The notes under the pieces are model-generated. The model was given only the letters and a program-made list of their open reading frames with translations, did no database searches and had not been told where the DNA came from. Both the position numbers and the translations under genes were made by a program. DNA of 64,000 bases, taken from positions 36,022,001 to 36,086,000 of the forward strand of contig OZ024742.1 of NCBI GenBank assembly GCA_964016885.1, given 5' to 3'. The number at the start of each line of letters is the position of its first letter. The first letter of the stretch is position 1. This stretch comes from Eledone cirrhosa. Lineage: Eukaryota. Below are positions 9,195-22,114 of this stretch, in pieces.

Positions 9195-9236
9195 GATATT
9201 AAATAAATGGAAACTATATTTATGAAATCATATTTA

Positions 9237-9293
9237 TTCTATTATATATATTTCAAGAGTACCAAAACTTTGGTACGCTCTCATCAGATAAAA
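9237..9293 (-). ncRNA. Minimal type I hammerhead ribozyme (family G)
   Basis: UUUUAU CUGAUGA GAG-C-GUACCAAA..UUUGGUAC-U-CUU GAAA UAUAUA UA AUAGAA. Confidence 0.75.
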
Positions 9294-9396
9294 TACAAAG
9301 AGTGTTTTATAAATTTTGACAGAGCCAAGGAAGAAAATTCAACTGATAAGGTATGATTTCATTGGCTATGTCAACATTTATAAAACACTCTTTGTA

Positions 9397-9455
9397 TTTT
9401 ATCTGATGAGAGCGTACCAAAGTTTTTTGGTACCCTTGAAATATATATAATAAAA
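9397..9455 (+). ncRNA. Minimal type I hammerhead ribozyme (family G)
   Basis: TTTTAT CTGATGA GAGCGTACCAAA..TTTGGTACCCTT GAAA TATATA TA ATAAAA; palindromic ATATATAT stem III. Confidence 0.8.
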
Positions 9456-9647
9456 CAAATATGGTTTTATAAATATAGTTTCTATTTAATTAATATCATT
9501 GAATATTTACTCCAGAATACTGTCGAGTGCTCTGAATCAGTTATAAACATTTATATTTGTTGTATTTCCAACAAATTAAATATCCCTTCTACTTATATAT
9601 ATATATCTTAGATGTATGTATATTATCCCATATATAACGATAATAAT

Positions 9648-9895: not shown

Positions 9896-12800
9896 CCGGA
9901 GTGTGTGTTTCACCGACATACAGTCCGGAGTGTGTGTTTCACCGACACACAGTCCGGAGTGTGTGTTTCACCGACACACAGTCCGGAGTGTGTGTTTCAC
10001 CGACATACAGTCCGGAGTGTGTGTTTAACCGACATACAGTCCGGAGTGTGTGTTTCACCGACATACAGTCCGGAGTGTGTGTTTAACCGACATACAGTCC
10101 GGAGTGTGTGTTTAACCGACATACAGTCCGGAGTGTGTGTTTCACCGACATACAGTCCGGAGTGTGTGTTTCACCGACATACAGTCCGGAGTGTGTGTTT
10201 CACCGACACACAGTCCGGAGTGTGTGTTTCACCGACATACAGTCCGGAGTGTGTGTTTCACCGACATACAGTCCGGAGTGTGTGTTTAACCGACATACAG
10301 TCCGGAGTGTGTGTTTCACCGACACACAGTCCGGAGTGTGTGTTTCACCGACATACAGTCCGGAGTGTGTGTTTCACCGACATACAGTCCGGAGTGTGTG
10401 TTTCACCGACATACAGTCCGGAGTGTGTATTTCACCGACATACAGTCCGGAGTGTGTGTTTCACCGACACACAGTCCGGAGTGTGTGTTTCACCGACACA
10501 TAGTCCGGAGTGTGTGTTTCACCGACACATAGTCCGGAGTGTGTGTTTCACCGACATACAGTCCGGAGTGTGTGTTTCACCGACATACAGTCCGGAGTGT
10601 GTGTTTCACCGACACACAGTCCGGAGTGTGTGTTTCACCGACACACAGTCCGGAGTGTGTGTTTCACCGACACACACTCCGGAGTGTGTGTTTCACCGAC
10701 ACATAGTCCGGAGTGTGTGTTTCACCGACATACAGTCCGGAGTGTGTGTTTCACCGACACACAGTCCGGAGTGTGTGTTTCACCGACACACAGTCCGGAG
10801 TGTGTGTTTCACCGACACACAGTCCGGAGTGTGTGTTTCACCGACACACAGTCCGGAGTGTGTGTTTCACCGACACACACTCCGGAGTGTGTGTTTCACC
10901 GACATACAGTCCGGAGTGTGTGTTTCACCGACACACAGTCCGGAGTGTGTGTTTCACCGACATACAGTCCGGAGTGTGTGTTTCACCGACACACAGTCCG
11001 GAGTGTGTGTTTCACCGACATACAGTCCGGAGTGTGTGTTTCACCGACACACAGTCCGGAGTGTGTGTTTCACCGACACACAGTCCGGAGTGTGTGTTTC
11101 ACCGACACACAGTCCGGAGTGTGTGTTTCACCGACATACAGTCCGGAGTGTGTGTTTCACCGACACACAGTCCGGAGTGTGTGTTTCACCGACATACAGT
11201 CCGGAGTGTGTGTTTCACCGACACACAGTCCGGAGTGTGTGTTTCACCGACATACAGTCCGGAGTGTGTGTTTCACCGACACACAGTCCGGAGTGTGTGT
11301 TTCACCGGCACACAGTCCGGAGTGTGTGTTTCACCGACATACAGTCCGGAGTGTGTGTTTCACCGACACACACTCCGGAGTGTGTGTTTCACCGACACAC
11401 AGTCCGGAGTGTGTGTTTCACCGACACACAGTCCGGAGTGTGTGTTTCACCGACACACAGTCCGGAGTGTGTATTTCACCGACATACAGTCCGGAGTGTG
11501 TGTTTCACCGACATACAGTCCGGAGTGTGTGTTTCACCGACACACACTCCGGAGTGTGTGCTTCACCGACATACAGTCCGGAGTGTGTGTTTCACCGACA
11601 CACAGTCCGGAGTGTGTGTTTCACCGACACACAGTCCGGAGTGTGTATTTCACCGACACACAGTCCGGAGTGTGTGTTTCACCAACACACAGTCCGGAGT
11701 GTGTGTTTCACCGACACACAGTCCGGAGTGTGTTTCACCGACACACAGTCCGGAGTGTGTTTCACCGACACACAGTCCGGAGTGTGTGTTTCACCGACAC
11801 ACAGTCCGGAGTGTGTGTTTCACCGACATACAGTCCGGAGTGTGTGTTTCACCGACATACAGTCCGGAGTGTGTGTTTCACCGACATACAGTCCGGAGTG
11901 TGTGTTTCACCGACACACAGTCCGGAGTGTGTGTTTCACCGACACACAGTCCGGAGTGTGTGTTTCACCGACATACAGTCCGGAGTGTGTGTTTCACCGA
12001 CATACAGTCCGGAGTGTGTATTTCACCGACACACAGTCCGGAGTGTGTGTTTCACCAACACACAGTCCGGAGTGTGTATTTCACCGACACACAGTCCGGA
12101 GTGTGTTTCACCGACACACAGTCCGGAGTGTGTTTCACCGACACACAGTCCGGAGTGTGTGTTTCACCGACACACAGTCCGGAGTGTGTGTTTCACCGAC
12201 ATACAGTCCGGAGTGTGTGTTTCACCGACATACAGTCCGGAGTGTGTGTTTCACCGACATACAGTCCGGAGTGTGTGTTTCACCGACACACAGTCCGGAG
12301 TGTGTGTTTCACCGACACACAGTCCGGAGTGTGTGTTTCACCGACATACAGTCCGGAGTGTGTGTTTCACCGACATACAGTCCGGAGTGTGTATTTCACC
12401 GACACACAGTCCGGAGTGTGTGTTTCACCAACACACAGTCCGGAGTGTGTATTTCACCGACACACAGTCCGGAGTGTGTTTCACCGACACACAGTCCGGA
12501 GTGTGTTTCACCGACACACAGTCCGGAGTGTGTGTTTCACCGACACACAGTCCGGAGTGTGTGTTTCACCGACATACAGTCCGGAGTGTGTGTTTCACCG
12601 ACATACAGTCCGGAGTGTGTGTTTCACCGACATACAGTCCGGAGTGTGTGTTTCACCGACACACAGTCCGGAGTGTGTGTTTCACCGACACACAGTCCGG
12701 AGTGTGTGTTTCACCGACATACAGTCCGGAGTGTGTGTTTCACCGACATACAGTCCGGAGTGTGTATTTCACCGACACACAGTCCGGAGTGTGTGTTTCA

Positions 12801-13040
12801 CCAACACACAGTCCGGAGTGTGTATTTCACCGACACACAGTCCGGAGTGTGTTTCACCGACACACAGTCCGGAGTGTGTTTCACCGACACACAGTCCGGA
12901 GTGTGTGTTTCACCGACACACAGTCCGGAGTGTGTGTTTCACCGACATACAGTCCGGAGTGTGTGTTTCACCGACATACAGTCCGGAGTGTGTGTTTCAC
13001 CGACATACAGTCCGGAGTGTGTGTTTCACCGACACACAGT
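9896..13040. repeat. 29-bp tandem satellite (CCGGAGTGTGTGTTTCACCGACAYACAGT), ~109 units, with a 373-bp higher-order repeat distally
   Basis: Near-identical units with no spacers; the CCAAC variant recurs at 11682, 12055, 12428 and 12801. Confidence 0.97.
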
Positions 13041-13169
13041 CACTGTTTAATTATTGTGAATGCTATTCTGGTCCCGGAACCCGGATTACGGTTGGAATTA
13101 CTTCAGCATTTAATCATCGTTTTCAGATTTGCTGGCGGTGGGAGAGCTGCTGAGATAGTGCTAGCTGAG

Positions 13170-13966: not shown

Positions 13967-14034
<68 letters not shown>

Positions 14035-14101
14035 CAAGGTTTAGCAAATAAGAAAAAGTTTTAAAATAAATTTTAAAAAGTTCACTCTACCTACTATATT
14101 T

Positions 14102-14185
14102 ACTCTTACCGCGAGGTTTCAAGTCTCAAAATAAATGGATAATCCATGCGGAAATTCATTGAGAAGAAGACTTTCGTCAGAGGGT
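14102..14185 (-). ncRNA. Type I hammerhead ribozyme (family H)
   Basis: ACCCU CUGACGA AAGUCUU...GAGACUU GAAA CC-UCGC-GG UA AGAGU (one stem I mismatch). Confidence 0.8.
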
Positions 14186-14310
14186 TCTTCTCACTCGGAG
14201 AATATAAAATTCCCGAGTTCAAATCACGAACTGGCGCCATACAGAACTATTCCCGGATGAGAGTGTATGATGAAGAAACAATTTTGTCTAGTGCGGTCCG
14301 AGTGAGAAGA

Positions 14311-14394
14311 ACCCTCTGACGAAAGTTTTCTTCTCAATGGATTTCCGCATGGATTATCCATTTATTTTGAGACTTGAAACCTCGCGGTAAGGGT
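14311..14394 (+). ncRNA. Type I hammerhead ribozyme (family H)
   Basis: ACCCT CTGACGA AAGTTTT...GAGACTT GAAA CC-TCGC-GG TA AGGGT; GUA triplet. Confidence 0.88.
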
Positions 14395-14579
14395 AATTAC
14401 AGCAGGTACAGTGAACTTTTTAAAATTTATTTTAAAACTTTTTCTTATTTGCTAAACATTGATTATATATGTTCTGGCTCGTTAATTTATTAACCTGCCA
14501 TAGAACAACAATGGCATACGGTTGGATAATACATGTGTCCCTATATAACATATATATACATATATATATGTATATACAT

Positions 14580-16740: not shown

Positions 16741-17262
<522 letters not shown>

Positions 17263-17345
17263 TTAAAAGAATAGAGGTGTAACACAAGAGTTGTGATATA
17301 TTGGTAAAAGGAAAAGAAAATGCTGACAAATTGTTCATATATCTC

Positions 17346-17409
<64 letters not shown>

Positions 17410-17410
17410 C

Positions 17411-17465
<55 letters not shown>

Positions 17466-17466
17466 C

Positions 17467-17500
<34 letters not shown>

Positions 17501-17855
17501 TGGTAAAAGGAAAAGAAAATGCTGACAAATTGTTCCCATTGAAAAATAGTTTAATTAGGAATAAGTAAAAATTAGTAATAAGTATTGGTTAGTATTCAGT
17601 TTTAGTTTAGCTTTTACCGGTTGCGCATTTCTAATGCTTTTCAAAAATAATTTGATGTTTGCTCTAATCGGATTAGAGCAAACATCACGGGCGCTCTATC
17701 TCAATATTTGTTTTGAAAAGCATTAGAAATGCGCTACCGGTAAAAACTTAAAACTAAAACTGAATACTAACCAATACTTATTACTAATTTTTACTTATTC
17801 CTAATTTAATTATTTTTCACTGGGAACAATTTGTCAGCATTTTCTTTTCCTTTTA

Positions 17856-17946
<91 letters not shown>

Positions 17947-17947
17947 G

Positions 17948-18024
<77 letters not shown>

Positions 18025-18051
18025 GCACATATATATATATACACACACATG

Positions 18052-18117
<66 letters not shown>

Positions 18118-18127
18118 GAGATATATG
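17263..18127. mobile_element. Large fold-back element (core 17498-17862) whose symmetry extends through flanking microsatellites
   Basis: Arms of ~150 bp, an internal perfect hairpin tgatgtttgctctaatc/gattagagcaaacatca, and catatatctcattat (~17336) mirrored by ataatgagatatatg (~18113). Confidence 0.75.
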
Positions 18128-18168
18128 TTTACAAACTGTGAGACTTTACGTCCTATAGAATGGAAATA

Positions 18169-18247
18169 GCTTTCTGAAGAGTGGATCTTTCCATTGGAAG
18201 TCGTTTGGATTCCCAATCTTTTGAGAGGCGAAACCGTCGGTAAAAGC
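18169..18247 (+). ncRNA. Type I hammerhead ribozyme (family L, copy 1)
   Basis: GCTTT CTGAAGA GTG...GGC GAAA CC-GTC-GG TA AAAGC; stem II base weakened relative to copy 2. Confidence 0.75.
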
Positions 18248-18646
18248 ATTTTGGACAGGTAAATATTTAAATCGTATTTTAATTTATTGAAAAGATTGTT
18301 TAATGTTTACTTGTTCCGCTCATCTCAATTTTATAGTTCTGGTATCTCAAATTAATACCATTGAACAACAAATGTATTATAGACACCCTATATATTTCCG
18401 TGGGTACTTAGTACCTGTGGAGATATTAATCTCATTTTATGTATGTTCTTCCATATGTGTAGAGAAAAAAGCGTTGTACCTAACTGCTATTTTTAGTAGC
18501 GTGACAAACAACATGTCTATAACATTCCCGCTTTTACTAACGACCAGTTTATGTGTTGGTCATTTTAACGACCTGACCTTACGCTAGCTGGCAGTAGGCG
18601 ATATATTTACTTACTGTGAGACTTTACGTCCTATAGAATGGAAATA

Positions 18647-18725
18647 GCTTTCTGAAGAGCCGATCTTTCCATTGGAAGTCCTTTGGATTTCCAATCTTTT
18701 GAGAGGCGAAACCGTCGGTAAAAGC
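18647..18725 (+). ncRNA. Type I hammerhead ribozyme (family L, copy 2)
   Basis: GCTTT CTGAAGA GCC...GGC GAAA CC-GTC-GG TA AAAGC; loop II holds small hairpins; predicted cut after 18720. Confidence 0.88.
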
Positions 18726-18804
18726 ATTTTGGATAGGTAAATATTTAAATCGTATTTTAATTTATTTAAAAGATTGTTTAATATTTACTTGTCCCGCTCA
18801 TCTC

Positions 18805-18887
<83 letters not shown>

Positions 18888-18888
<1 letters not shown>

Positions 18889-19374
18889 CGAAGGAAATGT
18901 GGTAAGGAACCAGGTGGACCATAACGCACCAAAGTACTCTATACTTGGGGTAGTAGAGTGGGTAATAGGAACCAGTAAGACCCCGACAGCTGAGCTCAAG
19001 CCGTTTCGACGGCTAATTCTGGACTAAATGAAAATTTATCCTGGTATTTAAATATTCTACCTACCGTTTCGACTTCCTCCCCTCCCCCTCCCCTGTATCT
19101 TCTTTGACCTCATGCCCAGCTGTAGCTGGCACTACAAACGCTTGATTGGGTCTACTCCACCCCCTCCCCTCTTTCTCCTACTGGCAGGTTTAGCCACCAT
19201 CTCCCCTACTAATTTGCAACCACAGAATTACTACCGATTTTTGACAATCACTTTGACCATATATGGAATTACCCCTTGAGAAGATCGGCTATTTAAATAC
19301 CAGGATAAATTTTCATTTAGTCCAGAATTAGCCGTCGAAACGGCTTGAGCTCAGCTGTCGGGGTCTTACTGGTT

Positions 19375-19379
<5 letters not shown>
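18888..19379. mobile_element. Inverted-repeat HHR element, family B (arms ~18965-19054 and ~19290-19379)
   Basis: Apparently perfect ~90-bp arms; the left arm has an extra tail and lacks the 5' core; (TA)n on both sides. Confidence 0.85.
19271..19364 (+). ncRNA. Type I hammerhead ribozyme with U3:A8 core (family B)
   Basis: ACCCC TTGAGAA GA(T)CGGCTA...TAGCCGTC GAAA CGGCT-TGAGCTC-AGCTG TC GGGGT; GUC triplet. Confidence 0.8.
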
Positions 19380-19418
<39 letters not shown>

Positions 19419-19503
19419 TGTGTGTGTGTATGCGCGTATATATATGTGTGTGTGTGTATACATATGTACATTCAGACCAAAATACACACACACGCACACA
19501 ACG

Positions 19504-19605
<102 letters not shown>

Positions 19606-20040
19606 ATATCCTTAATATCATTAATATTTTTATTTTAATAATACATATTAATAAATTCTCTTTTTTTTTTTCGCACATATTATTAAACCCTTCAATACAT
19701 AAACATAAATTAATACTATTCCTAATTCCTTTTTCTTCAATCATAAAGATCAACATCCATAAACCTCATTAACTTTTAATTTCAAAATCTTTTTAAATTA
19801 TCTATTATCTTCCAACGGTTTTTTATTTCTCTCTGTGAGACAATGTTTTCTCAGTTGTAAAGCCTATTTCTCTCTCTCTATCATTCATTTCTCCTCCTCT
19901 CTCATCCTTCCTTCTTATACTCCTCCCCCACCATCCTTTATTTTCTTTCTTCCTCTTCCTTACCTTTTCCTACCCCTCCCCCTCATTTTTACCCAATCTC
20001 ATATATCCATCTTACTTTTAAGCTTCATATCATGTCTCCC

Positions 20041-20111: not shown

Positions 20112-20637
20112 CTTGGAACTCTTTTAACCATCTTTTGATCTTATATTATATATATATATATACTAGCAGTGGTACCCGGCGTTGCACGGGATAAGGTATT
20201 TTGGAACGCGGGCCACCAACAGACCTAATCGGGGAAAAACTGCATGCCTCGACAATATGTAAAGAAAATAAACCGAATACTCTGTTGGCTGGATAATCTA
20301 AGATTTTCCTTGATGAAGCAGGGAAAAGGCAGGTTTTCACCTAATGCTGGCCCTAGGGGATCAAGAGAATGAATTTTCGGGAAAATCGGCTAGACGTAAA
20401 CGCCTCAAAAAAGCCCTATAAAGCTAAAAGAAATGAAGTTTTTTACCTAATGCGGGCCGGGCCCTAGGCCATAAAAAAAAGTTGGATTTTCTTTGCTCAC
20501 GGTATGAAGAAGAGACTGACTAATACATAGTTATAATTTCAAGGAAATCGGTTTGACGTAACGCTTCAAAAAACCCCTAAAAAGCTGGAAAAAGGCAGTT
20601 TTCCACCTAATGCGGGCCCTAGGAGATAAAAAATTAT

Positions 20638-21623
20638 AATTATACCGACCCGGATGCTCTCCAGGTGGCATTTTCGAGGCATCAATTACCACATTAAAAT
20701 TGGCTGTGATATCTATCTGCTTCCAAGGGGCATACTTGAAGCTAATGACATAGCTGATTTTTGTGTGCAGAATGTCTTGCAATTTCCTTATAAGCTCGAC
20801 ATTGGTACCGGGTGAAATGGAGTTTCTCATGGCTGCCTGCTCGTTGACATTCCCAACAAAGTACAGCTGAAGAAATTGAGGTTCTTGATTGGCGGCAGGT
20901 TGGAGGGATCCGATTCTATGGTACACCTGATATTGAACCTTAAATGTGGGCATAAATCCGCCTTCCTTGACAATGTTCGCCCCGAAAGATGTCATTTGGA
21001 AAGCACAGTTATACCTCCGGATGTAAGTCAGGAAATGCCGTGACTCCGCAGTACTGCCTGAATATAGGAGCTTCAACGGTTGTGGTGGATCCTCCAGGGG
21101 ACGTAATTTTACTTTTCCATTTGCACAACACAAGCCAGGTGTTTCTCCGGGCCACTTTTTTGCATTGCAGAAAGAGCATGTCTTTGACATACTCCCAATT
21201 CGCATGTCTGGATGGCCACTGTAATCAAAGTCAGGGTTGTACTCGAATGCTTTCAAGGACCATCGGCCTTGAAATACCCTGTCCAAAGGCCCTTCGTTGA
21301 GCATTACATTGTAGTCGAATGTCTCGTTCTTGCGAGGCCTGTGTAGCTCGCGCAGCAGCAGTATTCGTTGCATCCGTACTCCGACGTCTTTTACTCTGGT
21401 CGTCCGTCTCGGCTGCTCGTGCAACAGAAGTTGATGCGGCATTAGCGGTTCGGCGAATGGTTCGTTGATTGTCTGTTTCAAGTGCTCTTCTGGTGGCAGC
21501 ACGTTTAGCATCTTGCGACCTTCGAATAGCAGATTCCACTGACGATTCGTTTGCCCGCCCTGTTCTTGTTGTTGCTGCTTTCGCAGTTTTTCGGCCAACG
21601 GAGTATCTCTTCCTTCGAGGCAT
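20638..21623 (-). pseudogene. Helitron Rep/helicase N-terminal part, frameshifted near 21270 and truncated before the HUH and helicase domains
   Basis: MPRRKR plus 23-aa ES/ET...R..R repeats (STPR-like), then CSFCNAKKWPGETPGLCCANGKV, FLTYIRRYNCAFQMTSFGA, TFKVQYQVYHRIGSL, PQFLQLYF, GEHPGRYN. Confidence 0.88.
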
Positions 21624-22114
21624 GACCTAAAAGAAGTACAAAGTACAATGAAACTCACTGGTAGAGTAAGGAGTAAACTCGTCAGTGAATTAAAAACCGA
21701 TGCATGTGATTTCCGAATGGGGTATGGATAGGGAGAGGGGTAACAGTAAGAGCAGCGGTTGGAATGAGTGTAAGTTAGTGAATATGTTGTCAGTGACAAA
21801 AATGGCGTAAATGAAACGCCACACGCAAGTACACACACACACTGAAGCACGCAAACGCAGAAACGCACGCAAACTCACACACACACATGTTAATAGATTT
21901 AACTCATAATGGAACCCTGCGCGAACACACACACACACACACACGCACACGCACACATACACACGCGCGCACACACACACATGCACACGTGTTAATTACT
22001 TATAGCTTTCCTTCCACTCTTCCAGCGTCTCTCTCTCTCTCCCGCTATCCCCCTCTTTTAGTATGTCTGTTTCTTTCATTCTCACTCTTTCTCTTTATAA
22101 CCCACTCACATTAA

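Follow-up and report, generated by a model that had tools for sequence, protein, structure and literature searches.

A hammerhead ribozyme insertion in Eledone cirrhosa and its dispersed non-coding family, a candidate record of rolling-circle reverse transcription by Penelope-type enzymes

The window, the whole stretch of Eledone cirrhosa DNA analyzed here (64,000 nt), contains a short insertion with two hammerhead ribozyme motifs on the same strand. The features of the locus are as follows.

18128..18808, + strand: whole insertion, 681 nt or 1.42 units, 5'-truncated, with its 3' end at the short (S) end of the family, in (TA)n
18128..18330, + strand: repeat A, the upstream partial unit, pLTR-like
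18169..18247, + strand: type I hammerhead A, damaged; stem I 18169-73/18243-47, core 18174-80, predicted cut after 18242
18181-83 and 18227-29, + strand: stem II of hammerhead A, GTG facing GGC; hairpin 18194-18216 weakened
18243..18720, + strand: predicted cut-to-cut monomer, 478 nt, GC 35%, non-coding, structured
18322..18336, + strand: S site, about +87 from the cut, the commonest 3' end of family copies; TTTATA comes next; putative first reverse transcriptase (RT) start
18429..18445, + strand: L site, about +193 to +203, the second fixed 3' end; TTTATG comes next; putative second RT start
18606..18808, + strand: repeat B, the 3' partial unit, finishing at the S site at 18807-18808
18647..18725, + strand: type I hammerhead B, intact; stem I GCTTT/AAAGC, core 18652-58, predicted cut after 18720
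18672-18694, + strand: 10-bp hairpin of hammerhead B, around which stem II (GCC/GGC) lies; GAAA at 18708-11; stem III a 3-bp palindrome
18809..18887, no strand: (TA)n target tract at the 3' junction

An earlier note on this DNA had claimed two direct repeats at a spacing of 478 nt, and these were indeed found: 18123-18335 and 18601-18813 are 94% identical over 213 nt, and each carries one hammerhead core and one GUA site. The element proper starts and ends inside this repeat call, at about 18128-18330 and 18606-18808; the limits were trimmed because the TA tract and ATGAGATATATG immediately 5' of the locus are part of a neighboring element's inverted duplication. For the same reason, the idea that a very small L arm lies in inverted orientation at the 5' junction was rejected. 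The insertion is a single arm with an S end and has TA tracts on both sides, and no target-site duplication was discernible at the (TA)n 3' junction (18809..18887). The neighbor at 17250-17860 is an inverted pair of 3' ends (pLTR) of a Neptune-type Penelope-like element (PLE) and matches L052, L058 and L064; its short and long TA-joined ends lie about 40 nt apart, and the inverted duplication in its flanking TA tracts reaches 18127. At 18886-19380, a TA-inserted head-to-head element with long inverted arms was observed, which recurs in the flanks of L005, L049, L055 and L159.

Both copies of the ribozyme share the string CTGAAGA...GAAA CCGTCGG TA^AAAGC, and the GUA motif is present at both predicted cut sites, after 18242 and after 18720. 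A strict descriptor of the core plus three stems, which gave 0 matches on 100 shuffled windows, was passed by copy B and failed by copy A on account of GTG in stem II. This weakness of the first copy (GTG for GCC) had been pointed out in the earlier note and was confirmed; GTG was found once among 108 ribozymes, at copy A of this locus. Four changes in helix II of copy A are missing from, or rare among, 26 close relatives, and the computed hammerhead fold of this copy is -7.8 kcal/mol versus -18.5 kcal/mol for copy B. No Rfam hammerhead was detected, whether the whole window was scanned at the gathering threshold or 17000-20000 at E ≤ 10, probably because helix II, which is closed by stem II and includes the inserted 10-bp hairpin, is about 50 nt long. 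Folded as a hairpin, stem III has a computed energy of +0.4 kcal/mol, compared with -11.3 kcal/mol when it pairs as a self-duplex, and a double hammerhead is therefore predicted, within which site A would be cut by the intact core B. Six further strict hammerhead motifs, all of other families, lie in the window at 9287(-)/9403(+), 14316(+), 20049(+), 50859(-) and 59778(-). Those in 9200-9560 and 14030-14470 belong to head-to-head pairs (second core of the latter at 14180(-)), and helix II carries a long insert in those at 14316 and 20049.

The predicted 478-nt monomer is highly structured, with a fold z of -6.0 in linear and circular form alike. The absence of a convincing open reading frame (ORF) from the unit was borne out, the longest in 18135-18808 having 98 amino acids from stop to stop and 94 from ATG. 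Release of the 478-nt monomer by this locus, as the earlier note had proposed, is doubtful: copy A bears the four rare helix II changes, and only about 40 nt of element sequence lie upstream of it. A monomer from the locus would require transcription starting upstream of 18169, probably read-through, and the locus copy is decayed and therefore probably a poor monomer source. A candidate intron from GT at 18259 to AG at 18336 was rejected, as neither splice site is conserved from one subfamily to another. Three contig runs of one sample, given no weight as evidence, showed variants of the family and no splice joint, with no information on RNA ends. Elsewhere in the window, a 447-aa frame at 20531-21874 (-) has short direct repeats in its flanks (20316-20633); we take it to resemble the N-terminal part of a Helitron Rep-helicase, and Pfam gave no match for nine window ORFs, this frame included. 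Two long arrays were also seen, a 25-kb G/T-rich one of period 30/48 with a GC skew near 1 (24696-49378) and one of 109 29-nt repeats with 96% matches (9896-13041).

The insertion has many relatives. In the 3.0-Gb assembly, a DNA search gave 3,196 candidates, 40 of which were scored. An exact pattern for the 3' part of the ribozyme matched 1,188 times genome-wide (control pattern, 1), a pattern for the 5' part 134 times, and a dual-core pattern at unit spacing 53 times; with these 53 matches and arms of up to 19 ribozymes, the multimers that a genome search had been expected to reveal do exist. We inspected the 30 best loci and 60 among 100 listed 5'-pattern matches. Units measure 442 to 493 nt. 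Between the upstream and downstream repeats of 14 pairs, no systematic difference was seen beyond one column (3 C/T cases). Three dual-ribozyme copies with identical listed sequence lie about 20 kb apart (C4:294002245, 294022633 and 294042433) and are probably a segmental tandem duplication. The locus is an aged, 5'-truncated 1.4-unit copy of a dispersed family of non-coding hammerhead retroelements (non-LTR retrozymes).

Among the 108 ribozymes, 44 of which were scored as fully intact, the middle pair of stem I is TA in 41, AT in 16 and GC in 8, and the third pair of stem II is CG in 48 and TA in 26. Pair counting gave 35 compensatory cells versus 12.8 ± 3.1 expected, a value reached by 0 of 500 shuffles, in a sample of 39 rows of which 36 had been picked for intact stems, the 60 loci having been picked by core motif, and in which the compensatory changes represent few subfamily events. 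In a whole-unit comparison of 23 units, both sides changed in 7 of 74 predicted pairs. These counts show that the hammerhead stems of the family covary and that the ribozyme is maintained. Satellite-like tandem DNA, amplified at the DNA level and carrying a vestigial ribozyme, would account for the existence of tandem arrays and for the fact that intact ribozymes are only 44 of 108, but the compensatory changes in the stems argue against such an origin, and the copies bear marks of retroposition in that they are dispersed, truncated 5', inverted in places and inserted at TA with fixed 3' ends. We regard it as highly unlikely. The description of the unit as retrozyme-like is supported, the family hammerhead being covarying, the unit non-coding and structured and no PLE ORF attached.

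The genome also contains PLEs with RT and GIY-YIG domains, and one PLE family has a GUA hammerhead, ACCGGT in stem III and TA-joined ends. In Neptune-type PLE 3' hammerheads (L047:-, L048:6103, L055:5903 and L057), the core is TTGAAAA for CTGANGA and stem III is the palindrome ACCGGT. The TTGAAAA core is a U3-A8 swap, a probably active form of the hammerhead. A CX2-5CxxC linker, which the accessible part of PMC8557442 attributes to Neptune/Nematis, is present in 4 of 5 PLE proteins checked. If the repeats were pseudo-LTRs of a coding PLE and the locus a truncated piece of it, every insertion hallmark would be PLE-like, as is the case, and the neighbor at 17250-17860 is just such a PLE end. However, no coding PLE was found attached. 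At all 60 loci chosen by the ribozyme 5' motif, the upstream match continues in the unit or ends; in 90 loci, no PLE-protein tblastn match adjoins a 5' end (table inspected by eye) and no RT plus GIY-YIG ORF lies in or beside the unit; and no ORF above 69 aa occurs in 2 kb of a young multi-unit array. A coding PLE as the source of the repeats is thus largely refuted and, in our estimate, very improbable. In a partial sampling of 35 PLE loci, blastn detected no unit DNA except one nested family copy, and the likeness of the unit to the sampled PLEs is at the motif level only (ribozyme stem III, ends). The earlier note had posed retrozyme and PLE pLTR as an either/or; the retrozyme side stood insofar as no PLE ORF is attached, but the opposition is too sharp, as the family behaves like a non-autonomous PLE passenger.

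The insertion ends bear on how this passenger may move. The 5' ends of family copies are variable, and among 127 arms classified by their 3' end, 74 finish at S and 30 at L (23 unclassified); 100 of the 104 S- or L-ended arms run into (TA)n. The stretch from S to L is an optional tail of about 107 to 112 nt. Head-to-head inversions were found at 19 of 60 pattern-picked loci, and S was paired with L in 38 of 40 classifiable inversions (18/18, 13/14 and 7/8 in the individual samples; P ~7e-10 versus independent ends), the rule being broken in 2 of the 40; a further 15 inversions were unclassifiable and stand outside this count. Fixed 3' ends with an optional tail, 5' truncation, an inverted 5' copy and a microsatellite target are all marks of the PLE-mobilized type. 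TTTATA-like bases lie 3' of both S and L and are retained at some junctions, and base-paired priming is therefore possible. The 5' ends do not pile up at the cut site (3/46 versus 2.1 expected), and 6/46 fall at S (P = 0.018, uncorrected and post hoc, and given no weight here). In the literature searched, which excludes most subscription journals, no report of an S+L pairing count or of private-haplotype evidence was found.

Evidence on the template comes from a young 457-nt subfamily, which has about 70% identity to the window unit and 302 exact motif matches. At C1:156425700-156438650 (L146+L147), a 13-kb head-to-head array in (TA)n contains 19 + 9 hammerhead units of 457 nt; the 19-ribozyme arm has an S end, the 9-ribozyme arm has an L end, and most of 26 units are identical. 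Comparable arrays are L170-L173, L177 and L180, with at least 18 units in L171. The sample comprised 30 insertions, mostly chosen as multi-unit, 23 of which have at least 2 full units (120 units). In 8 of these 23, private variants are fixed in all units and absent at the other sampled loci, and wherever both arms span the site, both carry them. Two variants were checked genome-wide: for one, 10 of 10 matches lie inside one insertion, on both arms, and for the other, 29 of 31 lie in the C1 array. If one RNA circle were copied, each insertion would be preceded by a monomer bottleneck and many turns would follow; these multi-unit insertions fit rolling-circle reverse transcription of one circular monomer. 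The circular RNA that the earlier note had proposed thereby gains indirect support at the level of the family; it is the 478-nt release at the locus that is doubtful. A parent array outside the single assembly is a possible alternative source of the private variants. Eight mosaic variants were found within arrays (5 of 26 units carry one of them), and they point to a degree of duplication after insertion or of mixing between templates.

We consider it likely, with a probability of about 0.65, that the locus was copied by a borrowed Neptune-type Penelope enzyme, primed in (TA)n and probably rolling round a circular unit-length RNA. Tandem units would be transcribed, and the hammerheads would cut at GUA, probably as dimers via the palindromic stem III; the structured monomer would then be ligated to a circle, as in published retrozymes. 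A PLE RT/GIY-YIG dimer would nick (TA)n, and cDNA would start at two positions inside the unit, S (at about +87) and L (at about +193), where the UUUAUA-like bases that follow each would be able to base-pair with a TATA primer; the fixed ends and the targeting of TA are observed here, and a PLE is the probable source of the enzyme. Each RT would move upstream through the cut site, complete between 0.2 and about 19 turns and stop at random, and the two cDNAs would be joined head to head to give an S+L inverted insertion, a pattern that is observed and that rolling would explain. The copy at the locus would represent about 1.4 turns from S, with decay afterwards.

The same passenger could be copied from a linear template, a mostly uncut multimer transcript of genomic arrays, with unequal exchange homogenizing the arrays and circles, if any, being by-products. 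Long arrays able to act as masters do exist, and they hold mosaic variants. The locus itself is mosaic: 10 of 198 sites distinguish repeat A from repeat B, and 3 of the differences are polymorphisms common to close relatives. One circle would yield this state only through a template switch or conversion, an event at which the three shared polymorphisms hint, and the state counts against a single-circle origin. Also counting against a circle is the finding, in the accessible part of PMC11167929, that PLE insertion in vitro did not need ribozyme cleavage, that the main template was uncut RNA and that no reads ended at the cut site. However, a linear template sits poorly with private variants fixed across all units and both arms in an assembly without a parent, and with the maintenance of the ribozyme that covariation indicates. 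Moreover, just 4 variants among 60 singleton calls recur at another locus, and parental mosaics are therefore not passed on. On balance, we consider the linear template unlikely, though by no means far-fetched.

For the family as a whole, the rolling-circle reading would be that it is the genomic record of Penelope-type RT dimers performing target-primed reverse transcription on a single ribozyme-made circle, with subunits at S and L, one per target strand, making up to about 19 turns each, and with the 457-nt subfamily as the currently active substrate. To this we give somewhat better than even odds. Animal retrozyme circles are known, and their route back into the genome remains a hypothesis; if true, rolling-circle copying would turn a hypothesized life cycle into a documented one. 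The family allows a direct test: it has a young subfamily with defined start sites, S is paired with L almost strictly, multi-unit arms are each of a single haplotype, and Neptune-type PLEs whose RT-EN frames are long occur in the same genome. Its long-helix-II hammerhead, moreover, goes undetected by Rfam. The interest lies more in the family than in the locus: the young arrays, which make rolling-circle mobilization testable, are the best experimental substrates, and the locus, old and damaged, is a poor choice.

The comparison with known systems draws on the accessible portions of the sources cited. Plant LTR retrozymes (PMC4918200, as summarized in PMC7229834) likewise have a monomer bounded by two flanking hammerheads. 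However, they have type III ribozymes, true LTRs, PBS/PPT and 4-bp TSDs (PMC7229834), none of which was seen at the locus. A plant-type LTR retrozyme was ruled out by the type I topology, by the repeats, which are overlaps of a truncated unit, and by junctions in (TA)n.

With EN+ PLEs (Poseidon PAc, PMC11167929; Neptune/Naiad, PMC8557442), the family shares partial tandems, 5' truncation and an inverted 5' copy. Both have two internal sites at which RT starts (putative in the family) with a hammerhead upstream of them, insert into AT-rich or (TA)n DNA and bear an optional tail, in many cases at a single end. The PLE tail, 30 to 40 bp and often single-ended (PMC8557442), has been explained by a predicted RT dimer that starts at two internal sites (PMC11167929). 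Unlike those elements, the family has no ORF, a tail of about 107 to 112 nt rather than 30 to 40 bp and arms of up to 19 units; its putative start sites precede TA-like bases, whereas PAc initiation is reported to be non-homologous to the target (PMC11167929). Vertebrate retrozymes have been linked to PLE pLTRs (bioRxiv 10.64898/2026.07.22.740005), with in vitro cleavage by 1 of 9 dimers tested; the accessible text of that preprint contains no insertion-end or haplotype analysis. The family resembles them in co-occurring PLEs, in its monomer, dimer and multimer organization and in a length inside 51 to 972 bp, and differs from such PLE-derived retrozymes in that its unit has no sequence homology to a PLE pLTR in the 35 sampled loci.

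On its testable features, the family belongs to the metazoan non-LTR retrozymes (PMC7229834), for which PLE-driven tandem cDNA from circles has been proposed, not demonstrated. It differs from them in its helix II of about 50 nt with an inserted 10-bp hairpin and in (TA)n targeting with no visible TSD. Its units, at 442 to 493 nt, lie mostly just over the range of about 150 to 450 bp given there and, at about 457 to 490 nt for the bulk of the family, are longer than the expressed metazoan circles of 170 to 400 nt, the circle here being a putative one. Like the retrozymes of coral, mussel and axolotl, it is built of non-coding units in tandem, each containing a single type I hammerhead, and has a GC content below 50% and a structured monomer without LTR, PBS or PPT. 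Where helix II begins at its base, the young subfamily has the same U-U mismatch as the axolotl HHR_Amex2, and a short palindromic helix III is common to both (PMC7229834).
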